Shown here in pieces: positions 7,817 through 61,533 of a stretch of DNA of 64,000 nt. The notes under the pieces were generated by a model. That model did not search any database, was not told where the DNA came from, and was given only the letters and a program-made list of their open reading frames with translations. Each line of letters starts with the position of its first letter. Position 1 is the stretch's first letter. Both the position numbers and the translations under genes were made by a program. This stretch comes from Candidatus Magasanikiibacteriota bacterium (GTDB lineage Bacteria; Patescibacteriota; Patescibacteriia; Magasanikbacterales; UBA922). The stretch is taken from NCBI GenBank assembly GCA_041665025.1, contig JBAYJP010000005.1:11056-75055 (forward strand), in the 5' to 3' direction.

Positions 7817-9568
7817 ATGTTGTTACCCAAACGTCTCCTCTCGTTCTTTTTGGCTCTTTCACTTTTATTCACATTTTTCGGTAGTACGCTTGTATCTCCT
7901 GCAGTCGCATATGCAGCATCAAGCGTCTCTATGTCCCTCACTAGTAGTAATGCTCTTTTCGTCAATGAAACTAATTCACTCACTGTTTCAATGAAAGCAA
8001 ACAGTGCACTGCAAGACGCGCTTGTTGATTTCGAATTATACAATAGTTCAAATCAGCGAGTCGTTCAAAAAGTTTTTGAGCATGAAACTCTCGGGTTAAA
8101 TCAATCTCGTATATACACCCTTTCGTGGAAACCAACACAAACAGGCACGTATACATTGCGAACTGGTGTATTTACATCAAACTGGTCATCACTTATTCAA
8201 TGGGAAAATACAGCAGCAACATTTTCAGTGCAGGTTCGTCCTGTAGTAGCAACAACCGTGGCGCCTGCTTCTGCTGCAACAACCCAAGTGTGGTGGCCAT
8301 CTCAAAATGCGACCATATCAGGAGTACAACCATTTAAGGCTGTTCTTTCGGCTACGTCGCTTTCAGATTACCAGATGTATTGGCAGGTCGACGGCGGGCA
8401 GTTGAATTTTATGAACAATAGTTTAGTTGATGTTCCGCACAAAGAATCTCTGGTAAATGTATCGGGGTGGAATTGGAGAGGAAACGGCCCTTATACATTG
8501 AACTTTGTGGCAAAGAATGCAAGCGGTCAGACGATTGCACAAAAACAGGTAGCAATCTACATAGGCACATCTTCACAACAGACAGCGCCTGCGACACCTA
8601 CAACTCCTGTGGTAAATACAACCCAAACACAGACGACCCAAACAACAACTTCCCCTCCAACTCAAACATCTGCACCCGCACAAACTGCTACAGCGCCAAC
8701 CGCGACATCTGTTTCTGGTTTGTATGTAAATCCAAATTCTCCCGCATTGGTTCAAGCGCAACAATGGCAGAGTTCTCGTCCTGCTGATGCCGCACTTATG
8801 AAAAAAATTGGTGACCAGCCAAGCGCGCGATGGTTTGGAAACTGGAATGCCAATATATATACAGATGTAAAAAGTTATGTAGACGCTGCGGCAAGTGCTA
8901 ATGCGACTCCAGTACTTATTGCGTATAATATTCCTCAACGCGACTGCGGTGGATATTCTGCAGGTGGTAGTAATGATCCAGCCGTGTATCGCCAGTGGAT
9001 CACAGATATGGCGCGTGGTATTGGCAATAGAAGCGCAATGATTATTCTCGAACCAGATTCTGTTGCTTTGAATGATTGTCTTTCTTCCACTGACAAACAA
9101 ACTCGTTTTGGTTTGCTCTCGTACGCCGTGGATACACTCAAAGCAAATTCAAACGCACGCGTATATATTGATGCAGGACACTCAAGCTGGGTAGGCGCGC
9201 AAGATATGGCAAATCGTTTGACACAAGCAGGTATTGCACGCGCAAATGGTTTTGCGCTCAATGTGTCAAATTTTTATTCGACACAAGACAACGTGAATTA
9301 TGGAACGCAAGTCTCTCAATATCTTAATGGTAAACACTTTGTCGTGGATACGTCACGGAATGGACGCGGATCAAATGGCCAATGGTGCAATCCGTCTGAT
9401 AGAGCGCTTGGTGAAAAGCCAACACTTAGTACAGGCAATTCACTTGTTGATGGGTTCTTGTGGCTTAAGACTCCAGGTGAATCAGATGGCTCATGTAATG
9501 GTGGACCTTCGGCAGGGCAGTGGTGGCCTGAATATGCGCTTGGGTTAGCACAGAGATCATCATGGTAA
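7817..9568 (+). CDS. Secreted glycoside hydrolase family 6 (cellulase/cellobiohydrolase-like) with a signal peptide and N-terminal Ig-like and X domains
   Basis: Signal peptide, then an Ig-like domain, then domain X (GVQPFKAVLSATSLSDYQMYWQVDGGQLNFM...). A Thr/Gln/Pro linker follows. The GH6 catalytic domain carries YNIPQRDCGGYSAGG, ILEPDSVAL, YIDAGHSSW and FLWLKTPGESDG. Confidence 0.8.
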   Translation: MLLPKRLLSFFLALSLLFTFFGSTLVSPAVAYAASSVSMSLTSSNALFVNETNSLTVSMKANSALQDALVDFELYNSSNQRVVQKVFEHETLGLNQSRIYTLSWKPTQTGTYTLRTGVFTSNWSSLIQWENTAATFSVQVRPVVATTVAPASAATTQVWWPSQNATISGVQPFKAVLSATSLSDYQMYWQVDGGQLNFMNNSLVDVPHKESLVNVSGWNWRGNGPYTLNFVAKNASGQTIAQKQVAIYIGTSSQQTAPATPTTPVVNTTQTQTTQTTTSPPTQTSAPAQTATAPTATSVSGLYVNPNSPALVQAQQWQSSRPADAALMKKIGDQPSARWFGNWNANIYTDVKSYVDAAASANATPVLIAYNIPQRDCGGYSAGGSNDPAVYRQWITDMARGIGNRSAMIILEPDSVALNDCLSSTDKQTRFGLLSYAVDTLKANSNARVYIDAGHSSWVGAQDMANRLTQAGIARANGFALNVSNFYSTQDNVNYGTQVSQYLNGKHFVVDTSRNGRGSNGQWCNPSDRALGEKPTLSTGNSLVDGFLWLKTPGESDGSCNGGPSAGQWWPEYALGLAQRSSW

Positions 9569-9570
9569 AG

Positions 9571-9632
9571 AACACGTAACACGTAGCACATAGCATATGA
9601 GACACATAACTATAACATGTAACTCATAACTA
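9571..9632. repeat. Short tandem-like repeats of the CACGTAACACATAAC type in a 3' UTR
   Basis: aacacgtaacacgtagcacatagcat...cacataactataacatgtaactcataac. Similar to 13510-13562. Confidence 0.4.
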
Positions 9633-9660
9633 AACAGTCCCGAGATAGTCGGGACTGTTT
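9633..9660 (+). terminator. Rho-independent terminator (acagtcccga-gata-tcgggactgt)
   Basis: Perfect 10 bp stem with a tetraloop, followed by a T-rich tract (TTTAGTT). Confidence 0.5.
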
Positions 9661-9729
9661 AGTTAACAATTTGTTCACTTGACAATGGTTCACATGGTAA
9701 ACTATACTAAAATAGTATAAATATACTAT

Positions 9730-10920
9730 ATGCGCACATTATTATACAACATCAAGACAAGCGAACTAACACCAGGCGGTATACTGCGTCTGACGGCTGT
9801 TCCGATGCGTCCACGAGATAGGATGTATTATAAACCAGGACAGTACGCCATGATTGCGTATGAACTTTCAAAAGAATACCAAAAGTTTCATTCCTTTAGT
9901 ATCGTAAGCAGTCCGCTTGATGAACATATTTCGTTTGCTATCAAAGTGTCTGGTCCATTCACGCAGTCACTCGCGAGTTTACCTATAGGTTCTCTTATCG
10001 CAGTGCGTGGTCCATATGGCTCTTTTGTTTTGCGTGAACACGATACCAAAGATAGTGTACTTTTTGCTGCGGGTATTGGCATCACACCATTTGTGAGCAT
10101 GTTGAGGTACGCACATGAGACACAACAGCCTCAGAATATTCATTTATTATATAGTGTTCGATCGTCATGTGATGTTCCATTTATTGATATTATCAATCAT
10201 ATTGGAGAGGATAATTCGCGGATACGTCCAACCATTACTGTCACCGGAGGCGAAGATATTGTGCCCCATGGTTTTATAAAAGGAAGAGTTTCAAAAGAAC
10301 TTATTGAGTCCATAATTCCACGTTCCATTCATGCAACCCGATTTTATATATGTGGTCCATCAGTATTTATTCACGCTGTAGAAGATATGCTGACTGAGTT
10401 AGCTGTACGTCAAAAATATGTATATACCGAAGATTTTGTTCCTTCGGCACGCGTATTATGGAAACAGCCAGTACCGCTTGTAGCAAGTACGGCAGCTATT
10501 GCCGCGTCGGTTTTTGTTTTTTCCCTTGCCACAAATGCGCACGATGTCTCTGCGTTTGCAGATAAATCTTTCAATCGGCTTAATACAATATTTAATGCGA
10601 CAGATGTAAATGCCGCGGTTACTAAACAAAGAGAACAAGTGTTGTCACAAGAACAATATGAAACATACAGCGTGCCGCAAATTACCACAGTGCTCGTGCC
10701 AAGGCAGACGGCTGAGCAGATCAGTGTTATGGAACAAACAGTAGTGACAAAACAAGTGACTGCACAGCCGATACCGCAAGCAGCTCCGGCAGTTGTCCAA
10801 AATCCACCGCGCTCTACAAGTCTAGCACCTCAACAAGTTGCAACTCCTGCTCCCGCTGCTGTACAGCCAAAACCAGTCATCATGCCCACTCCGCCGCCTC
10901 CACGAACACAGGTGTCATAA
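9730..10920 (+). CDS. FNR-type FAD/NAD(P)-binding oxidoreductase module with a C-terminal TM anchor and a Pro/Gln-rich tail
   Basis: FAD-binding RxYS-like motif HSFSIVSSP and an NAD-binding motif. A TM segment AAIAASVFVFSLA near the C terminus is followed by a PQ-rich tail PAAVQPKPVIMPTPPPP. Confidence 0.6.
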   Translation: MRTLLYNIKTSELTPGGILRLTAVPMRPRDRMYYKPGQYAMIAYELSKEYQKFHSFSIVSSPLDEHISFAIKVSGPFTQSLASLPIGSLIAVRGPYGSFVLREHDTKDSVLFAAGIGITPFVSMLRYAHETQQPQNIHLLYSVRSSCDVPFIDIINHIGEDNSRIRPTITVTGGEDIVPHGFIKGRVSKELIESIIPRSIHATRFYICGPSVFIHAVEDMLTELAVRQKYVYTEDFVPSARVLWKQPVPLVASTAAIAASVFVFSLATNAHDVSAFADKSFNRLNTIFNATDVNAAVTKQREQVLSQEQYETYSVPQITTVLVPRQTAEQISVMEQTVVTKQVTAQPIPQAAPAVVQNPPRSTSLAPQQVATPAPAAVQPKPVIMPTPPPPRTQVS

Positions 10921-10995
10921 AAATTATTCTAACTTATACCAATTGTTCCAATTGGTCGAGACAAATATTAATTTCAAATAGATTAAGCCTTTATT

Positions 10996-11499
10996 ATGAG
11001 AAAAAAATATCTCCACATATACAGTTTTTTAGCAGTTTTTCTTATTGCTTTTTTTGCGTGTGCGCCGTCGTTATACGTGCATGCAGAAGATGAGGACGAG
11101 GCTTTCAAACAAGAAATAGAGCGTGTTCGTGAAGAACAAAAACAAGAGCTTGAAAGAGAGCGTGAAGAAGAAAAAAAAGAGGATGAGTACGAAGCAGAAA
11201 GAGAGGATGAATATGAAGATGAAGATTACTTTGAAGGGCCTCAACAAGTCCAGCCACAACCCGAACCTATTGTCGAGGAACAGCCGCTCGAACAACCAGT
11301 GGCACAACAACCAATTATGACTCAAGTAACTGAAACAGTCCCCACAACTCGCGTAGTTGAAAAGCCCGTAATACAAATGGTAGAACAATATCAAACAACG
11401 TATGTAACGCAATATAGAAAGACAAATAACTATATTGTGAGTGATGTAAATATGAATGGCGTAGTTGATCAATTTGAATTGATCGTGGCAGGTAGTTAG
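10996..11499 (+). CDS. Secreted highly acidic protein (Glu/Asp-rich) with a Pro/Gln linker
   Basis: Signal peptide MRKKYLHIYSFLAVFLIAFFACA; an EDEDE/EREREEEKKEDEYE low-complexity stretch; C-terminal DVNMNGVVDQFEL. Confidence 0.4.
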   Translation: MRKKYLHIYSFLAVFLIAFFACAPSLYVHAEDEDEAFKQEIERVREEQKQELEREREEEKKEDEYEAEREDEYEDEDYFEGPQQVQPQPEPIVEEQPLEQPVAQQPIMTQVTETVPTTRVVEKPVIQMVEQYQTTYVTQYRKTNNYIVSDVNMNGVVDQFELIVAGS

Positions 11500-11570
11500 T
11501 GTGGTATTGAGTAGTTTAGTTATCTAAAATTCTTTTAAAATTTTGAATTCCAAATTAAAAATTTACGAGT

Positions 11571-12539
11571 ATGTATTGGACATTCGGCTTTGATGCCTGG
11601 GATACAACGATTTCCGGCACGGTAGATGTCGGAGAAAAGTATGACGAATCGACGTTGGCTGATTTGGAACAGCAATTAAAAGCTGACGCAGAAATGTACG
11701 CGAAGATATGTTCACGTTTTGATAACGCAAGTGAGATATCGCAGTTGAATGAACAAACTGATAACGAAGTGGTTGTGAGTGAACGACTGTCTGATATGTT
11801 GGAAAAGGCGCAAAAGACCTATAGGGAGACACACGGCATATTTGACCCTACAATTTTGAAAGCTCTTGAACATAGTGGGTATGATAAAACATTTTTGAAT
11901 ATCTCTGATGATGATCCATCAACCCATATATACGAAAAACGTGATTTGATTGTGAGACAACACGCGGGACGTCCCCAGTTTAGTGAAATAAGACTACACA
12001 AAGATAAACACAGCGTATATATGCCGCTTGGCATGCGGATTGACCTTATGGGAATTGCAAAAGGGTATTGGGTAGATTATGCGGTTGAACAATTTTTTTC
12101 TGAATATCAATCATTGTGGCTTTCCGCAGGTGGAGATATATATGTGAAAGGCATGGATGAAAAACAAGAGCCGTGGAAAATTATAGTGCAAGATCCGTTT
12201 GACCTTTCAAATAATATCGGCTATTTTACGCATACAGCCAAAAAAGATTTTGGTGTTGCGACATCGGGTATTACGAAGCGCATGGGTATGAGTGGGGCAG
12301 GTAAATGGCATCATATTATTGATCCACGTACTGGCTTGCCATCAGAAAGTGATGTCGTATCAGCTACAGTTTGCGCGCCGAGTGTGGCAGATGCGGATGT
12401 GTATGCCAAGACTGCGGTTATACTCGGGTCTCACCAAGCGCATTTATTTTTTTTATCACGTCCGGAATGTGAGTATGTGCTTGTGGATGTGAATGGGCGA
12501 GTGTATTATTCTCAAAACTTGTCATTCCGAGCGACCTAA
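11571..12539 (+). CDS. apbE: FAD:protein FMN transferase (ApbE family)
   Basis: ApbE motifs IDLMGIAKGYWVDYA, LSAGGDIYVKG and GAGKWHHIIDPRTGLP. Confidence 0.8.
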   Translation: MYWTFGFDAWDTTISGTVDVGEKYDESTLADLEQQLKADAEMYAKICSRFDNASEISQLNEQTDNEVVVSERLSDMLEKAQKTYRETHGIFDPTILKALEHSGYDKTFLNISDDDPSTHIYEKRDLIVRQHAGRPQFSEIRLHKDKHSVYMPLGMRIDLMGIAKGYWVDYAVEQFFSEYQSLWLSAGGDIYVKGMDEKQEPWKIIVQDPFDLSNNIGYFTHTAKKDFGVATSGITKRMGMSGAGKWHHIIDPRTGLPSESDVVSATVCAPSVADADVYAKTAVILGSHQAHLFFLSRPECEYVLVDVNGRVYYSQNLSFRAT

Positions 12540-12640
12540 TGGAGTCGAGGAATCTCTTTTTAAATCACCGAGTGACGCATAGAAAAGGGATCCCTCGATT
12601 GCGCTCATTCGTCCCTCATTCGCTTCACTCGGCATGACAA
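12521..12640. repeat. Imperfect long inverted repeat built from two copies of the TCATTCCGAGCG...GAGGAATC motif family
   Basis: gtcattccgagcgacc...tcgaggaatc at the left; gatccctcga...cactcggcatgac at the right is its near reverse complement. Overlaps the apbE stop and fills the spacer to the next gene. Confidence 0.45.
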
Positions 12641-12650
12641 TTGTAAACAT

Positions 12651-13529
12651 ATGTTCAAGAAAAAAGAAACAATCTACGGAGTCGTCACATTATGTTTAGT
12701 CATTATATTTTCTTTGGTATTTTTTAATACAACAAAGGCACAAACTACATCTTCTATTTATGCTCAAGATCCAGATCCAAAAGATACAGATATAGATGGT
12801 CTCACTGATCAAGGAGAAAAGTATTTGTTTGGGACTGACCCAACTCTACCCGATACAGACGCAGATGGATACCTCGATGGCGCAGAAGTATTGTCACAGA
12901 CTGACCCACTTGATCCTATGAGTCCCGGCACGGTAGCACAAGTGAAGACAATACGTGAAGTTCCATGGCCATGGTACAGCGCCCGAGCCGCGGGGATTAT
13001 TAGTTATATTTTATTATTTTTTATTACGATATCTGGTATTGCATTGTCTACCGGGGCGCTTTATCGCGTGTTTGGACAAGTGTGGGGATGGCGCATGCAT
13101 CAGTGGATTGGGATTATGATGATGGTGAGTGTTGTCGGACATGTAGTCGCGCTTGGGCTTGATACATTTATGAGTTTTTCTCTTGCAGAACTTCTCATAC
13201 CATTTGCGACTGATTACAAGCCAGTGCTCATGGCCTCCGGCATTGTGAGTTTCTATTTTTTTCTCATACTTATTTCCACATCATTATTTGTGATTCAAAA
13301 AAAATACCGTTTGTGGAGATATTTTCATTATTTGTCATTTCCCATGTTTGCTGGAGCATTTGTACATAGTGTGCTCTTGGGTACCGATTCAAAAACGCTT
13401 ACGATGACGATAATGTATTGGGCTACGGCGATTATTGTAGGATTGTTTGTGATTTATCGGATTTTGTATCGGAAGATTCAAGGGAGAGTGTTTCATCAGC
13501 ATCTGGGGCACGTAACACATAACACATAA
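12651..13529 (+). CDS. Ferric-reductase-like bis-heme transmembrane domain protein with N-terminal TSP3-like calcium-binding repeats
   Basis: Signal/TM, then DPDPKDTDIDGLTDQGE...DTDADGYLDGAE (thrombospondin type 3-like Asp repeats). Six TM helices carry His pairs spaced 13 apart (RMHQW...VGHVV and YFHYL...FVHSV), as in NOX/MsrQ heme ligands. Confidence 0.6.
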   Translation: MFKKKETIYGVVTLCLVIIFSLVFFNTTKAQTTSSIYAQDPDPKDTDIDGLTDQGEKYLFGTDPTLPDTDADGYLDGAEVLSQTDPLDPMSPGTVAQVKTIREVPWPWYSARAAGIISYILLFFITISGIALSTGALYRVFGQVWGWRMHQWIGIMMMVSVVGHVVALGLDTFMSFSLAELLIPFATDYKPVLMASGIVSFYFFLILISTSLFVIQKKYRLWRYFHYLSFPMFAGAFVHSVLLGTDSKTLTMTIMYWATAIIVGLFVIYRILYRKIQGRVFHQHLGHVTHNT

Positions 13530-13562
13530 CAAAGTTCACGTAACACATAACAAAAATAGCTC
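13510..13562. repeat. CACGTAACACATAAC-type repeats overlapping the gene end and 3' UTR
   Basis: cacgtaacacataacacataac...cacgtaacacataac. Encodes the C-terminal HVTHNT residues and continues past the stop codon. Confidence 0.4.
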
Positions 13563-13655: not shown

Positions 13656-14144
13656 ATGAATAATATTTTTGTATCACATAAAGGAGAGTTTCGCACACAT
13701 ATTGGCATTATGTTTGCGATTTTCATTTTGTTTTTGATCGGTGCGATAACGCTGTTTGCAAATTTTATGCACCGCAATAATATAAGAGAGTTTGAAGAAA
13801 AAGGAAAAGTATATACCGGCATAGTTACGGATAATTATTTTTTTCATACGCCTGAGGTTGGAACTCGAAGCAGTATAAGAACTCGATACATGATTTGTCT
13901 TAAGCCGACCGAACCTATAGAAAATTATGAGTTATTATGTTCGAGTGAATATATTTCGCGCTCATTGGCTCAGAAATACCCGGTAGGGTCCACTATATCG
14001 GGATATTTTCGAAATGATATTTATGAAATTTTGCTTATTCCGGGCATTGAAAGTTGGAGGGGAAACAAGATTTTTCAGTATCTTCCGTATGGATTTTTTG
14101 GTGTAGGCGTGGTACTTTTGTTGTATGCTAAGTTGAAGAAGTGA
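13656..14144 (+). CDS. Hypothetical membrane protein (N- and C-terminal TM helices, DUF3592-like architecture)
   Basis: 162 aa. TM at residues 15-35 and 140-158. A terminator hairpin acagctccggagaggggctgt plus T-run follows at 14183-14208. Confidence 0.4.
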   Translation: MNNIFVSHKGEFRTHIGIMFAIFILFLIGAITLFANFMHRNNIREFEEKGKVYTGIVTDNYFFHTPEVGTRSSIRTRYMICLKPTEPIENYELLCSSEYISRSLAQKYPVGSTISGYFRNDIYEILLIPGIESWRGNKIFQYLPYGFFGVGVVLLLYAKLKK

Positions 14145-17828: not shown

Positions 17829-19550
17829 TTAATATACATTTATGCTTCTTGTCCCTTGAGCGATCACACTACCCTGTGCATTCTTTGCAATAAAGGTGAT
17901 ATTGTATGGTCCGGCACCTTTCCAGCCCCACAAACTCACGTCAACCAATGCTTCTTTGTGCGGATAATCTACGTTGCTATCTGCCATACTGTTTAATTGT
18001 CCGCCATCTACTTGCCAATACATAGTGTATTGGGATACGTCGAGACCTTCTACCATTGCCTTGAATGGTTGGACACCTGATGCCGTTATATCACTGCTCG
18101 GCCACCATATATTCACTGCTCCTGAAGAAGGTGGCGGAGTTGGAGGTGGCGTATTTTGGGTTACTGATATAGATGCCGTGTTTGCATTCCATAAATAATT
18201 TTGTGTCCAGTTACTATTGAATATGCCAATCACGACCGTGTATGATCCAGCTACTGTCGGCGTCCAGTTCATGTTGTATTGTTTTGTCTCACTTGCGATA
18301 AAAATTTGTTTGTCAAAAAATTGTTGGTGTATTTTAGTATTTGAACTGTCATATATCTCAACATCGATTATTGTATTGTTTATTGCGTCTCCAGTATTAG
18401 TGATACTCGCGCCAATTTGTATGGGTGTGTTTATTGTGGTCATGTTTGGTGTTGCGGAGACTGCCTGTGTAAAAGAAATTTTTGTTGGCGGGGGAGTAGG
18501 TGCCGTGCCTCCGGCGAACCATGTGCGCATGGTCGTTTCTGCTAATTTGTTTTGTGGCGTGAAGTCCATATCGCCTTGTCCGCCTGCATTTGGATTGCTA
18601 TTCCAGTCCCACAATTGTACACCAACCATGTAGTCATAATTATTCCAATATGAAAATAATGCTTCATACAGTCGTGATTGATTTCCTTCGTCAAATCCGC
18701 CTCCAGCCCAATAATTAAATGGTTCCCACTGAGCCCAGTTCATACTGCGATATCCAACTTCGGTAAACAAAATAGGTTTATTGTATGCATTACGTAAGTT
18801 TGCAATATCATTTTTATTTATGACGTCCCATTTTTGCGTATATGATTGTACTGACGTGTCGTTTGTCGTGAGGGGGAAATAGGCAGATATACCGACATAA
18901 TCCAACGCATCCCAAAATTTGATTCTATTTTTTTCATCGACCCATTGTCCTTGTGCGCCCCAGTTTGCGCTATATGTTAGTTTTCCGGAAAATACCGTCC
19001 GTGTATAGGCAATGAGGTCGCGCCAATTTTGCGTATTGCTCCCATTTGCATTGTCGGCTGACATATTGATAAGTTCTGCGCCAATGGTCATTTCTTCTAC
19101 ATTGTTTGACTGAGCCAGACTGGCATAATGGCCTAGTACTGTTTTGTAGTTGGCAAACCATCGCGCCCGATCTCCTGGATTTATATTGGCGCGCCACTGT
19201 CCGTCATCTGATTCCAAATGAATTTTTATATTTACTGCCATGCTTTTGCTATGAATATATTGAACACCGGCAGCTAGGGAACCGTCTGTGGGCGTATTCC
19301 AATCCCGGTATAAATCTGTCGTCCATACGTTTGCTTGTTTGTAGGGAATAATGAGTGTAATGTAGTTTGCATTTGCGTTTTTTGCATTGTCAATGGATTT
19401 TTTGAATGAATCGCTGCTAAAGTCTGTATTCCAGTTCGGGCGAATGGAAACACCTTTTTGCCAATTTGAAATAGCAGCCTTACTCATGAGAGGCACTGTA
19501 AGAAATATGGCAGTGATGAGTATATAAATTGTGTATTTTAGTTTGGTCAT
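17829..19550 (-). CDS. Secreted clan GH-A (TIM-barrel) glycoside hydrolase (mannanase/cellulase-like) with C-terminal Ig-like and X domains
   Basis: Start proposed at MTKLKYTIYILITAIFLTVPLMSKA (signal peptide). Candidate acid/base block IGAELIN and nucleophile block ILFTEVGY. The C-terminal X domain GVQPFKAMVEGLDVSQYTMYWQVDGGQLNSM is homologous to the N-terminal region of the GH6 protein at 7817. Confidence 0.55.
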   Translation of the reverse strand: MTKLKYTIYILITAIFLTVPLMSKAAISNWQKGVSIRPNWNTDFSSDSFKKSIDNAKNANANYITLIIPYKQANVWTTDLYRDWNTPTDGSLAAGVQYIHSKSMAVNIKIHLESDDGQWRANINPGDRARWFANYKTVLGHYASLAQSNNVEEMTIGAELINMSADNANGSNTQNWRDLIAYTRTVFSGKLTYSANWGAQGQWVDEKNRIKFWDALDYVGISAYFPLTTNDTSVQSYTQKWDVINKNDIANLRNAYNKPILFTEVGYRSMNWAQWEPFNYWAGGGFDEGNQSRLYEALFSYWNNYDYMVGVQLWDWNSNPNAGGQGDMDFTPQNKLAETTMRTWFAGGTAPTPPPTKISFTQAVSATPNMTTINTPIQIGASITNTGDAINNTIIDVEIYDSSNTKIHQQFFDKQIFIASETKQYNMNWTPTVAGSYTVVIGIFNSNWTQNYLWNANTASISVTQNTPPPTPPPSSGAVNIWWPSSDITASGVQPFKAMVEGLDVSQYTMYWQVDGGQLNSMADSNVDYPHKEALVDVSLWGWKGAGPYNITFIAKNAQGSVIAQGTRSINVY

Positions 19551-19564
19551 AAAATTTAAGTTAT

Positions 19565-19641
19565 CTAGGTTGGCTAAGTTGACTAAGTGTAAATTGTACA
19601 CATTTTTGAACTTAGGTACTTAGTTAACTTAGCCAACCTAG
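19565..19641. repeat. Perfect 16 bp inverted repeat CTAGGTTGGCTAAGTT ... AACTTAGCCAACCTAG between two genes of the polysaccharide cluster
   Basis: Arms at 19565-19580 and 19626-19641 with a 45 nt loop. Lies between the stop of the GT-C/GH8 gene and the start of the GH-A gene. Confidence 0.5.
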
Positions 19642-41215: not shown

Positions 41216-41279
41216 TATTTTTATAAATCATCATGACACATATTAAATAAAAAAGACCATATTGTGCATGATCTGTTTG

Positions 41280-41351
41280 TGCCCTCGCCAGGAATTGAAC
41301 CTGGATTTCCAGCTTCGGAGGCTAGCGTCATATCCGTTAAACTACGAGGGC
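41280..41351 (-). tRNA. tRNA-Arg (CCG)
   Basis: Manual fold of the reverse complement. Acceptor GCCCTCG/CGAGGGC; anticodon stem CTAGC/GCTGG with loop CTCCGAA; T-arm CCAGG-TTCAATT-CCTGG. Confidence 0.75.
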
Positions 41352-41420: not shown

Positions 41421-41427
41421 AATAAAG

Positions 41428-41501
41428 TGGGCATGGATGGACTTGAACCGTCGACATCCACCTTATAAGGGTGGCGCTCTAACCAACTGAGCTACATGCC
41501 C
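41428..41501 (-). tRNA. tRNA-Ile with a TAT (UAU) anticodon
   Basis: Reverse complement GGGCATGTAGCTCAGTTGGTTAGAGCGCCACCCTTATAAGGTGG...GGTTCAAGTCC...CATGCCCA. Ile-type D-arm; anticodon loop CTTATAA. One C-A mismatch in the T-stem. Confidence 0.7.
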
Positions 41502-46584: not shown

Positions 46585-48048
46585 TCAATTTCCTTTTTCA
46601 ATTGGTACTCTTTTTATGGTAAGTGACCCGGAATTATCTGATGGCCATGTGTTTTCTATTTCCAATGTTTTATTAATGACGTTTTCATTGAATAAAACTC
46701 GTAAATATACACCTCTTCTCAATTTTTCAAGAGGAATATAATTTTGCCAGCCAACCATATCCCATGTGCCGACGAGTGCTTGTTTACTATCTTTGCTCAT
46801 ACCAATCCAATAGCGCGCGTCATCAACTCCATTATTTTTTTCCCCAATTTCTCCATACCCCCAAAAACCAACCAGTTTTTTATCTTTAGGACACCATTCG
46901 CTCGATAGTGCCGCGTCACTTTGTGTTGCATCTATGAGTCTTGGAAATTTGAACATCTGAGGTTTAAATGTTTCTCGTTTACTACTTTGCAGAGGTACTG
47001 CCTCATTGGCATTCCCATATCCGTTTCTGAATGTGCCCGGATAAAATTTTCCTTGGCTATCCACACATGCACCTACTAATCCAAATACATCTTTATCGAG
47101 CCAATTCGTCTTGTCTTCAAGTACATTAGCAATATAGGCGACCAGCGGAACATCTATAAGCGTATCTTGCCACATAGAGCCTACGCCGAGGTGTAAAATG
47201 AGTTGTGCATCTTGGCACACCATTTCTGCTTGTTCTGCGGGGCTAGGGGCACATACTTTTCCGCTCTCGCATGCGCTTCCACGACATGTTTGGTTGCCCG
47301 TGTCATACACAAAATAATAATCACCGCATGGGGCGCTGAGACCTGTCTCGCCCTCAAATTTGGCGGTTTTCAACAGTTCTGCACGCTGTTGATCGGACAT
47401 GGTCAGCAAGTCCTTTTGTTTGTATGCAAACGCAACAGTTGTACTGGTGTCAATCATTTCATCGCAGTATGGTGGTACAAGCCCCAATTGATTAATGGCC
47501 CAGATTTGAGGAAGTCGTAGATTGACTAGATAGGGGTTGAGAAGTTTTAAAAGAATATACGAAAATGAAAGAAGTACAAGCCCCACTATCGCGTTTGAAA
47601 TTCTACCTTTTGCTTTTGTTATTGTTTCAGAATTTCCTGCAGATAGCGACCATTGTGCGCCGGCGGTAACAACCATGAAAACAGCAATAATTGTCGCAGC
47701 CATAAAGCCGTATCTTTGGACATATACAATAAATTCACCAATATGAGCGAATTTTGTTTTTCCACCAAAAGAAATGCTTGTTTCAGTTTGTCCAGCCGGC
47801 AAACAAAAACCTAGTTTTTTGCCCGCAGTATCTTCCGTGCCTCCGCATGCTTTTTTTGCATCGTCATGTTCCGATGCGTAATAAACACCGTCTATTGCTA
47901 TTTTTTCATCATTATTTACAAATGGCAATCTATAATTTATACATTCTTGTTCTGTCCAACAACGCTGGTCTACTTGAGCGCTGACTGAAAAAAATGGTGT
48001 AAACAACACACCTGCGATGATAACGGAGAAGATGGCTTTTTTAAACAT
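46585..48048 (-). CDS. Cys-rich secreted/membrane protein of unknown function
   Basis: Signal peptide, two central TM helices, about 20 Cys in the extracytoplasmic parts. No motif recognised. Confidence 0.35.
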
Positions 48049-60210: not shown

Positions 60211-61533
60211 ATGAAAAAATCATTATTACCTCTTTTCATTATCTTCAATCTTCTTATTATTTTTTACTTCTGGTTTGTCGGATCAGGAGATCTCATTCTT
60301 TCAGGAAATACAGAACAAATATTATTATCGCTCGGCAGACTATCCGGCTTGTTGGCCGTATTTTTTGTATTACTACAGCTTATCCTTATTGGTCGGCTCA
60401 GTTGGGTTGAATGCGTATTTGGTATGGATAAATTATCGCGTCTGCATCATTGGAATGGCATTATTGCATTTGGATTTATTATTACTCACCCTATTTTACT
60501 CGGACTTTCATACGCACGATTCAATGAGGTCTCTTTTTTTCAGCAGTTAGTCGACTTTACATTCAGATGGGAAGAAGTGGGGGGTGCAGTTTTAGGAACG
60601 TTATTATTTGCCGTCATTGTCATTTCATCTATGGTAGCGGGACTGCGCAAAGTGAAATATGAATTTTGGTTTTGGGTTCATTTTACTGTGTATCTTGCAA
60701 TTTTGCTTGTGTTTGAACATGAGATAGAAGTTGGGGGAGATTTTGTAGGACAACCACTATTTGTGGCGTATTGGTATGCACTATACGCGTTTGCAATTGG
60801 AAATTTGGTGTTATTTAGATTTGTGCGTCCTGCATATTATTTTTATACACATCGTTTTTACGTTGATAAAGTGGTGCGTGAAACAGCAAGTACGGTTTCT
60901 ATTTATATAAAGGGAAGGAAAATGGATCAATTTAAAATTGAAGCCGGGCAATTCATGATTTTTCGTTTTCTAGATGCAAAACGATGGTGGCAAGCGCATC
61001 CTTTTTCGCTGTCATGCGCGCCAAATGATGAATACCTGCGCATTACCGTAAAAAATGTAGGTGACTTTACGTCAGAAATTTCTGGAGTCAAGGTGGGAAC
61101 TCCTGTTTTAGTTGATGGGCCTCATGGCATATTTACTAAAAAAGTTGCACGTAGCAATAAACTATTGTTTGTTGCTGGAGGTGTAGGGATAACGCCCATT
61201 CGGTCGCTTGTTGAACAGATGGCGCAAGAAAAAAGAGAGCTCACCCTAGTTTATTCAAATAAATATAGTAGTGACATTGTCTTTTTTAGCGAACTTGAAT
61301 TGCTTGCCGAGCAGTATCATTTTGAGTTGTATCATGTGCTAAGTGATGATCACGCATGGCAAGGACTCAAAGGAAGGATACATATTGATATGCTTAAACA
61401 GTTGGTGAATGATGTGGATGAACGAGATGTGTATGTATGTGGCCCTCCTGCCATGATGGAAAGTGTCATTAACATATTACAAAAGATGTTTGTTTCAAAG
61501 CAGAGAATTCATTTTGAAAAATTTTCTTTGTAA
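60211..61533 (+). CDS. NOX/ferric-reductase family protein (bis-heme TM domain plus FAD plus NAD(P)H domains), bacterial NADPH-oxidase-like
   Basis: TM His pairs LHHW...ITHP and VHF...EHE spaced 13-14 apart; FAD motif HPFSLS; NAD motifs GGVGITP and CGPPAM. Confidence 0.7.
   Translation: MKKSLLPLFIIFNLLIIFYFWFVGSGDLILSGNTEQILLSLGRLSGLLAVFFVLLQLILIGRLSWVECVFGMDKLSRLHHWNGIIAFGFIITHPILLGLSYARFNEVSFFQQLVDFTFRWEEVGGAVLGTLLFAVIVISSMVAGLRKVKYEFWFWVHFTVYLAILLVFEHEIEVGGDFVGQPLFVAYWYALYAFAIGNLVLFRFVRPAYYFYTHRFYVDKVVRETASTVSIYIKGRKMDQFKIEAGQFMIFRFLDAKRWWQAHPFSLSCAPNDEYLRITVKNVGDFTSEISGVKVGTPVLVDGPHGIFTKKVARSNKLLFVAGGVGITPIRSLVEQMAQEKRELTLVYSNKYSSDIVFFSELELLAEQYHFELYHVLSDDHAWQGLKGRIHIDMLKQLVNDVDERDVYVCGPPAMMESVINILQKMFVSKQRIHFEKFSL

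Follow-up and report, generated by a model that had tools for sequence, protein, structure and literature searches.

A split NOX-type operon with a predicted cytoplasmic ApbE in Candidatus Magasanikbacteria

How might a bacterium of the Candidate Phyla Radiation (CPR, or Patescibacteria) move electrons out of its cytoplasm? Members of this group are viewed as fermentative, with no respiratory chains and nearly no extracytosolic flavinylation. The question is raised by four genes, g1–g4, in a 64-kb stretch of DNA from Candidatus Magasanikbacteria, the whole of which we analysed and refer to as the window. These genes encode an FNR-type dehydrogenase, a secreted acidic protein, an ApbE-family FAD:protein FMN transferase and a bis-heme ferric-reductase domain (FRD) protein, and together with their relatives they point to a widespread, compact form of NAD(P)H electron export. 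A first-pass annotation had claimed four consecutive plus-strand genes here, and the open reading frames (ORFs) lie where it placed them. The terminator and promoter match on the 5′ side and the terminator-like hairpin on the 3′ side are consistent with a single operon, which g1–g4 appear to form:

9627–9665 (+): strong hairpin terminator whose 17-pair stem contains 7 G-C pairs and precedes a T-rich stretch; it ends the upstream GH6 gene and is the 5′ boundary of the operon
9679–9708 (+): promoter-like site TTGACA-18-TATACT, 21 nt 5′ of the g1 ATG; with 11 of 12 matches it is the best in the region, as a consensus match only
9730–10920 (+): g1, FNR-type FAD/NAD(P)H dehydrogenase with a transmembrane (TM) anchor, a disordered tail and a C-terminal motif, 396 residues
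10996–11499 (+): g2, secreted acidic protein, 167 residues
11571–12539 (+): g3, ApbE-family FAD:protein FMN transferase without a signal peptide, 322 residues
12651–13529 (+): g4, signal/anchor helix, two TSP3 repeats and a five-TM bis-heme FRD, 292 residues
13558–13574 (+): terminator-like hairpin 3′ of g4

The operon is flanked by a gene for a GH6 hydrolase upstream and by one for a two-TM protein of no assigned family downstream.

Separate dehydrogenase and heme genes of NOX type

A genome scan, using one genome per species and an alignment of 13 closer g4 homologs, yielded 79 related loci that span CPR, Chloroflexi, Actinobacteria and Firmicutes; the arrangement is conserved across these four bacterial phyla. 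The halves that are fused in NOX enzymes had been proposed to lie here on separate genes around ApbE, and that proposal is upheld: both g1 and g4 match fused NOX proteins, and on the sequence evidence their reading as a split NOX-type pair holds. Their relevant parts are as follows:

9730–10449 (+): g1 dehydrogenase domain, residues 1–240, with HSFSI (54–58), GIGITP (115–120), CGP (208–210) and TEDF (233–236)
10471–10539 (+): g1 TM anchor, residues 248–270 (VPLVASTAAIAASVFVFSLATNA), a hydrophobic helix
12783–12887 (+): g4 TSP3 Ca-binding repeats (DTDIDGLTDQGE ... DTDADGYLDGAE), predicted to be extracytoplasmic; the first repeat is invariant in family alignment A2
13098–13142 (+): g4 TM3-equivalent helix, with H150 and H164 (H-x13-H)
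13326–13367 (+): g4 TM5-equivalent helix, with H226 and H239 (H-x12-H)
13380–13388 (+): g4 loop G244-T245-D246, just outside the outer-heme histidine and part of the conserved extracytoplasmic face

Residues 26–240 of g1 match the Pfam families NAD_binding_1 (8e-13), FAD_binding_8 (2.9e-8), FAD_binding_6 (8e-7) and NAD_binding_6 (1.4e-4). These matches, the hydrophobic helix at residues 248–270 and a 126-residue tail rich in V, P, Q, A and T confirm the earlier description of an FNR-type module with a C-terminal TM anchor and a Pro/Gln tail. Both motifs that serve as NOX sequence filters (PMC5676040) are present, HSFSI for FAD and GIGITP for NADPH, and the best PDB sequence match of the dehydrogenase is the corresponding domain of SpNOX (8qq5, 4e-11), with methane monooxygenase reductase nearly equal (1.5e-10). 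The NADPH motif is kept in 119 of 120 g1 homologs and a hydrophobic helix follows the FNR domain in 113 of them. An AlphaFold2 (AF2) model of g1, built on 35 homologs, has a predicted local distance difference test score (pLDDT) above 93 for residues 1–240 and of 35–45 across most of the tail.

For g4, Pfam returned Ferric_reduct (4.3e-7) and TSP3_bac (3.6e-8), the latter bearing out the N-terminal TSP3-like calcium-binding Asp repeats of the first-pass annotation. The four heme histidines show no variation among 27 homologs or across 78 of the 79 related loci, the single exception being a truncated locus. NOX/FRE proteins are defined by two bis-histidyl motifs (His-x12/14-His) carried by different TM helices with a gap of 20 residues or more (PMC5676040). 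g4 shows this pattern, and a family profile of g4 aligns both pairs to the heme-binding helices of SpNOX; the profile was required for this alignment, a single-sequence phmmer search of the PDB having returned TSP3-like matches only. Best PDB matches of the g4 AF2 model (pLDDT 85) are NOX2, SpNOX, the TM domain of csNOX5 (TM-score 0.58 on target) and DUOX1. In the NOX/FRE definition, a single polypeptide also combines six TM helices with a dehydrogenase at its C-terminus, whereas g1 and g4 are separate, with two genes between them. Two details of the earlier description need amendment. The histidine pairs had been given as spaced by 13, which is right for H150/H164, with 13 residues between, but not for H226/H239, with 12; together these spacings are the NOX pattern. 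The ferric-reductase domain had been called six-helical, but the heme domain has five TM helices and there are six only if the N-terminal signal/anchor helix is retained. That helix has a possible cleavage site between TKA and Q, and short-form FRD relatives (about 190–240 residues) comprise the five core helices only, some of them behind a clearly cleavable signal peptide, so the 'sixth helix' of g4 may be a signal peptide.

Gene fusions provide a further argument that g1 and g4 act together, as seven related loci (L013, L014, L016, L018, L021, L032 and L078) encode a TSP3-FRD protein with the FNR module joined to its C-terminus. Moreover, the window itself contains a classical fused NOX-like gene (60211–61533, +, 440 residues, ending ...HFEKFSL) with Ferric_reduct, FAD_binding_8 and NAD_binding_1 domains, so that a fused NOX coexists in this genome with the split, ApbE-linked system. 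The paralog aligns to g1 across the whole dehydrogenase domain (E 7e-21) and to g4 over both histidine pairs (E 1e-8), and it has G-G-D at the position of the g4 G-T-D loop. The four conserved histidines that the first-pass annotation expected in the TM protein are present in the alignments and line up with those of both SpNOX and this paralog. Separate and fused forms of dehydrogenase and heme domain in close relatives, with a fused paralog in the same genome, constitute a natural series for the assembly of NOX. The signal-peptide-led TSP3 region at the N-terminus and the FNR fusions at the C-terminus set the predicted orientation of the FRD, with H150 and H226 near the cytoplasm and H164 and H239 near the outside. 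Apart from the histidines, the residues that are invariant across the family map to the outer face of the FRD: W108, R112, D171, P184, F185 and G244-T245-D246.

A signal-peptide-free ApbE clade and a terminal-serine tail

The ApbE gene adjoins the FRD gene in 59 of the 79 loci, usually directly upstream and with overlapping stop and start codons, and the seven contexts that were sampled with ApbE or FNR as the starting point all have the gene order FNR/tail, ApbE, FRD. Thirteen of the 79 loci encode the FNR module as a gene of its own, upstream, and the NAD(P)H module is confined to CPR loci. Firmicutes, Actinobacteria and Chloroflexi have a three-gene core of tail, ApbE and FRD, with neither FNR nor any other cytoplasmic domain. 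Two cultured Firmicutes, Fodinisporobacter ferrooxydans and Anoxybacteroides tepidamans, carry this core, which makes the flavinylation proposed below directly testable.

The assignment of g3 to ApbE is secure (PF02424, 6.5e-52, 177 bits against a cut-off of 25.6), as had been claimed. Its best PDB match is FmnB (7esa), and it aligns to FmnB, Ftp and ApbE structures (7esa, 1vrm, 4xgw, 4ifu and 6nxi). Invariant in 59 members of its clade are D158, G161, K164, G165, A230-T231-S232, H248 and G187-G188-D189. The catalytic, FAD-binding and Mg-binding residues of ApbE (the His of HH-I-D-P, the Ser of T-S-G, the Asp of A-D, and G-x-x-K-G) are kept across the clade, with a conservative change at D276(E), and F50 of g3 stands at the position of E. 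coli Y60, a marker of the FAD-binding class. By these residues g3 looks catalytically active. Separately, K280 of g3 (12408–12410 of the window) aligns with the Thr of the canonical A-D-A-L-S-T in three of four alignments (T. maritima, E. coli and T. pallidum), and this position is Lys in 48 of the 59 clade members, a change that might bear on metal binding or on how a C-terminal carboxylate is recognized.

The first-pass annotation had left room for a signal peptide on ApbE if alternative starts were considered. None is possible: an in-frame TGA at 11544–11546, 24 nt 5′ of the g3 ATG, excludes an N-terminal extension, and g3 has no hydrophobic N-terminus. A hydrophobic N-terminal stretch was likewise found in none of the 120 closest g3 homologs, in which the ApbE fold starts at median residue 9, and in almost none of the ApbE proteins across 58 related loci. 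From these features g3 is predicted to be cytoplasmic. A cytoplasmic ApbE with a separate target elsewhere had been named as an outcome that would speak against the original proposal. The prediction of a cytoplasmic location is indeed what we obtained, but the tight, often overlapping linkage of ApbE to the FRD gene argues for a target that is local.

What could that local target be? Pfam detected no FMN_bind domain (PF04205) in the operon genes or in representative tail and accessory proteins of the relatives. The canonical motif D-x-x-[ST]-G-A-[ST], which had been expected in neighbouring extracytoplasmic proteins, is absent from the operon; [ST]G[AS][ST] is not positionally conserved among the ORFs that neighbour the FRD in 40 loci, and its matches in the gene set of the window are confined to unrelated ORFs far from the operon. 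A degenerate candidate is found instead at the C-terminus of g1, and equivalents of it at the ends of related tails:

10540–10899 (+): g1 tail linker, residues 271–390, rich in V, P, Q, A and T and predicted to be extracytoplasmic, with a degenerate second copy of the motif, PPRSTSL (359–365)
10900–10917 (+): g1 C-terminal motif P-R-T-Q-V-S-COOH, a candidate non-canonical ApbE flavinylation site whose motif is kept in about 60 loci from four phyla
Tail endings in many CPR: PRTTVS, PRTQVS, PRTRVS
Tail endings in other CPR: KTTKKS, KTKTS
Tail endings in Chloroflexi: RARTSRGS, KRTRAS
Tail endings in Firmicutes: IRSRAS, RTRAS
Tail endings in Actinobacteria: ARSSAS, VRSRAS

The tail module comprises a TM anchor, a low-complexity linker of P, T, Q, A and S (median about 90 residues, range roughly 50–160) and a motif at the extreme C-terminus. 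It is either fused to a separate FNR domain, as in g1, or encoded as a small stand-alone protein, the latter also where FNR is fused to the FRD. An automated filter for a TM segment, a linker and a C-terminal [RK]-[TS]-x-x-S recovered it in 61 of the 79 loci, whereas among background ORFs the loose pattern occurs in 3.9% and the strict one in 0.7%. Ser is the last residue of all 59 collected tails, position −3 is Thr or Ser and position −4 is mostly Arg or Lys; the motif can be written [R/K]-[T/S]-x-[V/A]-S. The cytoplasmic part of the stand-alone proteins is only 5–15 unconserved residues long, and their flanking charges average +3.0 on the N-terminal and −0.9 on the C-terminal side of the helix, with N exceeding C in 32 of 34; by the positive-inside rule these tails would have their N-terminus inside and their C-terminus outside, in agreement with the FNR-fused form. 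This charge bias and the cytoplasmic nature of the FNR domain together place the g1 tail, by prediction, outside the cytoplasm.

Among 117 full-length g1 homologs, [ST]-x-[VA]-[ST] occurs within the last ten residues in 62%, compared with 8.8% of control windows from the same tails. The endings comprise 38 of the form [ST]-x-[VA]-S, 37 of the form ...SG[VIT]..TC(x), such as QSGVTTCV, and 18 of the form ...PSG[RK]Cx; a few homologs have three or four extra residues after the motif. Saccharibacteria tails carry SGVT, near to the canonical flavinylation motif SGAT. A terminal Cys pair is found in 59 of the 117 homologs, and two Saccharibacteria tails (L081 5001–6188 and L082 5001–6095) end in a Cys-x7-9-Cys loop (…CTTSQSGVKTCV and …CQTTPSGRCI), which suggests a disulfide-closed loop that presents the SG motif outside the cell; such a loop would fit an extracytoplasmic location of the tail. 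A Paceibacterota homolog with FNR, TM and tail (L086 1906–3471, 521 residues) carries P-[VI]-T-S-V-S four times within its tail, a motif that in other homologs stands at the C-terminus, and may bear several modification sites.

In sequence terms, [ST]-x-[VA]-[ST], the core common to these endings, relaxes the ApbE motif [ST]-G-A-[ST]. ApbE is known to modify short unstructured terminal tags, in which the motif ends at the modified residue and a seven-residue tag works best at protein termini (PMC12052999, PMC9400968). Ala-to-Val and Gly-to-Ala substitutions in the motif leave about 50% efficiency and loss of the Asp matters little (PMC12052999), and natural flavinylation on an unstructured C-terminal extension has been described for FMN_red proteins (PMC11334425). 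Together with the comparative evidence above, these properties make the end of the g1 tail the likely ApbE target.

g2 was considered as a substrate and set aside, as it has no conserved Ser or Thr and its conserved loop tracks the TSP3 extension of the FRD. Its signal peptide-like residues 1–30, its E/D-rich residues 31–80 and its excess of 38 D+E over 16 K+R bear out the description as a secreted acidic protein; a Pfam search assigned it to no family. The loop is EF-hand/dockerin-like:

11443–11478 (+): g2 C-terminal loop D-x-N-x-N-G-V-x-D-x-x-E (DVNMNGVVDQFE), kept in 32 loci as D-x-N-x-N-G-[IV]-x-D-x-x-E

Relatives of g2 often add TSP3-like DxDxDG...HPGEDD repeats. Across the 79 loci, 31 have both g2 and the TSP3 extension, 43 have neither and 5 are discordant, a co-occurrence that marks g2 as a CPR-specific accessory, which probably partners the g4 TSP3 region in a Ca-dependent manner.

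A model of electron export and its alternatives

From the domain identities, heme ligands, catalytic residues, gene order, fusions, motif conservation and predicted topology, we propose NAD(P)H-driven transmembrane electron export from NOX-type parts, ending at an FMN that is tethered by the tail. We give this model an even chance; its conjectural elements are the contact between g1 and g4, the flavinylation of the tail and its place, which way the electrons flow and what accepts them. In the cytoplasm, the FNR domain of g1 would move hydride from NAD(P)H to FAD, and g1, held at the membrane by its own TM helix, would deliver electrons to the inner heme of g4, from which they would pass to the outer heme. 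The outer heme would then reduce an FMN that g3 has placed, in phosphoester linkage, on the Ser/Thr motif that terminates the ~125-residue disordered extracytoplasmic tail. This flavin might dock on the conserved outer face of g4, where R112 could bind its phosphate or a carboxylate and D171 and D246 the basic residues of the motif, or it might swing out and shuttle across the wall to an external acceptor. Iron is our leading guess for that acceptor, with oxygen, as in SpNOX, and others possible. In the quinone-containing Firmicutes, Actinobacteria and Chloroflexi, the FNR-less core may draw on quinol, as MsrQ does. CPR bacteria usually lack quinones, which fits the restriction of the NAD(P)H module to their loci.

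The absence of a signal peptide from ApbE makes flavinylation before export of the tail the most economical account. The unstructured C-terminal tag would be flavinylated in the cytoplasm, where FAD is available, and the tail would be exported post-translationally, as small N-anchored proteins and late TM segments can be exported after translation or late in it. Flavinylation before export would explain the position of the site at the extreme end of a disordered tail, the ApbE without a signal peptide and the lack of a flavin exporter in the cluster. It would also define a new class of ApbE substrate, in which a cytoplasmic ApbE places FMN on the [R/K]-[T/S]-x-[V/A]-S-COOH of a disordered tail that is exported afterwards. 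We advance this tentatively, as a possibility that falls somewhat short of an even chance.

Several points weigh against tail-tethered electron export. ApbE is predicted to be cytoplasmic and its proposed acceptor site extracytoplasmic, and we know of no precedent for flavinylation before export. CPR bacteria usually lack heme and flavin biosynthesis, so that the cofactors would have to come from outside. In its fold the g1 dehydrogenase is close to FNR-superfamily proteins in general, among which flavohemoglobin, Fpr and cytochrome b5 reductase rank above SpNOX and DUOX, and the NOX-type H-[PSA]-F-[TS] is present in only 5 of 120 g1 homologs, most of which have R-C-F-S. The tail motif has neither the Gly-Ala core nor the Asp of the canonical D-x-x-[ST]-G-A-[ST]. 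About a dozen Chloroflexi loci with tail and FRD have no ApbE within 8 kb, which makes the link between tail and FRD tighter than the link to ApbE. Finally, an iron connection has weak hints at two of the sampled loci and no others: a ferritin gene (PF00210, 3e-42; L002 8907–9419) that immediately follows the FRD gene in a Magasanikbacteria locus of 60% identity, and a gene for a Fur-family regulator (L082 9992–10396) 2 kb downstream of the FRD in a Saccharibacteria locus.

The foremost alternative, which we judge unlikely, accepts the split NOX or ferric reductase and gives ApbE a cytoplasmic role unrelated to the tail. ApbE would flavinylate another cytoplasmic site or a protein encoded elsewhere, or would handle FAD or supply FMN to the dehydrogenase; the tail would be a spacer or anchor that spans the wall, and its motif would serve FRD docking, recognition by a PDZ-type protease or some other modification, for example glycosylation, for which Pro/Thr/Ser-rich extracellular linkers are common substrates. 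The signal-peptide-free N-termini of g3 and its 120 closest homologs suit this account, as do the Chloroflexi loci that keep tail and FRD with no adjacent ApbE and the missing Gly-Ala core of the motif, and cytoplasmic ApbE enzymes with cytoplasmic targets are known, Klebsiella fumarate reductase being an example (PMC12052999). It would, however, have to find a cytoplasmic target in the three-gene core outside CPR, which has neither FNR nor a further cytoplasmic domain; no Ser or Thr on the cytoplasmic side of the FRD is conserved among the related loci, and the tail protein offers only its few unconserved N-terminal residues. In addition, the invariant catalytic residues of ApbE imply a real protein substrate, and the near-canonical SGVT of Saccharibacteria tails points back to the tail.

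A second alternative, quite improbable in our estimate, is that this is an ordinary 'MsrQ-like' system of the published kind, with an FMN_bind substrate elsewhere in the genome and an ApbE that is exported by a route missed by sequence prediction. The analysis covered 64 kb of a contig of at least 440 kb, which counts in its favour. Neither the operon nor the sampled tail and accessory proteins contain FMN_bind, however, no [ST]GA[ST] recurs at a conserved position in the 40 loci, and the signal peptide is missing from the whole ApbE clade, whose fold starts at median residue 9. Furthermore, the published survey dropped ApbE proteins without signal peptides and found CPR 'strikingly underrepresented'. 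Flavinylation of T245 in the g4 G-T-D loop, which would create a heme–flavin exit site within the membrane protein and would suit the near-invariance of G244-T245-D246 on the outer face beside H239, is very improbable, because Anoxybacteroides tepidamans has G-P-D despite an adjacent ApbE, L050 has G-A-D, the loop is equally conserved in FRDs with no adjacent ApbE, and a short inter-helix loop would be hard to modify before membrane insertion and would face the same topology conflict with a cytoplasmic ApbE.

If export to a tail-tethered flavin is correct, neither an exported ApbE nor an FAD exporter would be needed, and a 'flavin on a leash' would take electrons from a NOX-type bis-heme conduit and carry them across the cell wall. 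Quinone-less CPR, some Chloroflexi, Actinobacteria and Firmicutes would then have a compact, NAD(P)H- or quinol-fed form of extracellular electron transfer (EET) that earlier surveys missed through their signal-peptide filter. The system bears on NAD+ regeneration, iron acquisition and host interaction in CPR. An ApbE clade without signal peptides that is closely tied to a heme conduit and a conserved terminal Ser motif would extend both the range of ApbE substrates and the ways in which flavoproteins are known to be made, and the motif would be a natural, very short flavin-tag.

Relation to described systems and other features of the window

The pairing of ApbE with a ferric reductase, put forward in the first-pass annotation, is borne out by g3 and g4, but the cluster type had already been described. 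'MsrQ-like' flavinylation-associated clusters, found mainly in Actinobacteria, combine PF01794 with apbE, typically with an FMN_bind gene and often with PF00175 at the C-terminus (Méheust et al. 2021, PMC8238504). Genes for ApbE or FMN_bind proteins without a signal peptide or lipobox were excluded from that survey, in which CPR were strikingly under-represented (PMC8238504). The adjacency of g3 and g4 falls within its cluster definition. Our operon and the published clusters (PMC8238504, PMC11334425) share a PF01794 bis-heme protein beside apbE, a NAD(P)H-binding PF00175 module as presumed cytoplasmic donor, the proposed transmembrane electron transfer to an extracytosolic covalent flavin and hints of a link to iron, which in the published clusters take the form of VIT1 links (PMC8238504). 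They differ in that the published ApbE and FMN_bind proteins have signal peptides, whereas g3 has none and FMN_bind is absent here, and in that the NAD-binding domain is usually a C-terminal fusion there but a separate, TM-anchored protein, g1, here. The module of TM helix, linker and C-terminal motif is a further distinction of the present operon, and CPR loci add the TSP3 extension and the secreted acidic Ca-binding partner.

SpNOX (8qq7, 8qt6) and csNOX5 (Hajjar et al. 2017, PMC5676040) share with g1 and g4 the H-x13-H and H-x12-H pairs, the FAD and NADPH motifs and the predicted fold of the heme domain. In contrast to those enzymes, the system described here has two polypeptides, five TM helices plus a signal/anchor helix, extracellular TSP3 repeats, an ApbE and a tail motif. 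E. coli MsrQ and Fre (cited in PMC5676040) likewise form a split NOX, from an FRD heme protein and a separate flavin reductase of the FNR family. Fre, however, is soluble, encoded elsewhere and acts via free flavin, whereas g1 is TM-anchored and lies in one operon with ApbE. MsrQ feeds the periplasmic MsrP, for which there is no counterpart in this operon: no operon gene has a Pfam match to a molybdopterin-domain partner of the MsrP type, and the neighbours are GH6 and the two-TM protein.

A likeness to the flavin-based EET of Listeria (FmnB/PplA/Ndh2/EetAB) had also been suggested, and it extends to ApbE/FmnB but to no other component. In both, a transferase of the ApbE family is linked to sending cytoplasmic reducing power out of a fermentative bacterium that has a cell wall. 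The Listeria parts are a lipoprotein ApbE, the FMN_bind protein PplA, a quinone pool, Ndh2 and an energy-coupling factor (ECF) flavin exporter; among the four operon genes, Pfam matched none of Ndh2, EetA/EetB, DmkA/B, FmnA or PplA, leaving the FmnB/ApbE homolog. The C-terminal extensions of FMN_red proteins (PMC11334425) and the engineered Flavin-tag (PMC9400968, PMC12052999) have in common with the g1 tail an acceptor Ser or Thr in a short unstructured terminus and a motif that ends at the modified residue; those sites keep [ST]-G-A-[ST] beside a folded flavin-binding domain, whereas the candidate here is [RK]-[TS]-x-[VA]-S after a membrane anchor and linker. Literature searches for CPR with ApbE, NOX or ferric reductase and for terminal-Ser flavinylation returned no account of the arrangement in the papers searched. 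It is apparently an undescribed and phylogenetically broad variant of a partly described class, set apart by an ApbE clade that is predicted to be cytoplasmic, by the lack of FMN_bind and by a tail module that ends in Ser.

Downstream of the operon, g5 (13656–14144) was considered as a fifth component and rejected, being kept only in an 88%-identical relative. A recurrent membrane-anchored protein directly after the FRD gene in other loci has a conserved N-E-C-P-x-E-P-L-E-I-Y motif and a second Cys; a hidden Markov model of this 'ENECP-EPLEIY' family did not match g5, and the L082 member matched no Pfam family. Its members are the following:

L008, 4258–4728: 'N-E-C-P' protein
L010, 5394–5867: 'N-E-C-P' protein
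L011, 8437–8940: 'N-E-C-P' protein
L032, 7163–7684: 'N-E-C-P' protein
L081, 7836–8753: 'N-E-C-P' protein
L082, 7757–8362: 'N-E-C-P' protein
L083, 7781–8383: 'N-E-C-P' protein

Short CACATAAC / CACGTAAC-like repeat runs lie at 9575–9625 and 13515–13555, directly after the GH6 and g4 stop codons, and each run is followed by a hairpin terminator. Elsewhere in the window, a tRNA-Ile gene with anticodon UAU (41427–41501, −) adjoins one for tRNA-Arg(CCG) (41279–41351), and a gene at 46585–48048 (−) encodes a 487-residue secreted protein with a weak T4SS_pilin-like match (1.9e-5), just under the Pfam cut-off. The secreted GH6 (7817–9568, +) and GH113 (17829–19601, −) proteins have a common non-catalytic module, VWWPS..ISGVQPFKA..Y.MYWQVDGGQLN.M..VD.PHKE..V, which lies in the N-terminal half, before the catalytic domain, in GH6 and at the C-terminus in GH113, and which may be a carbohydrate-binding or surface-attachment domain.

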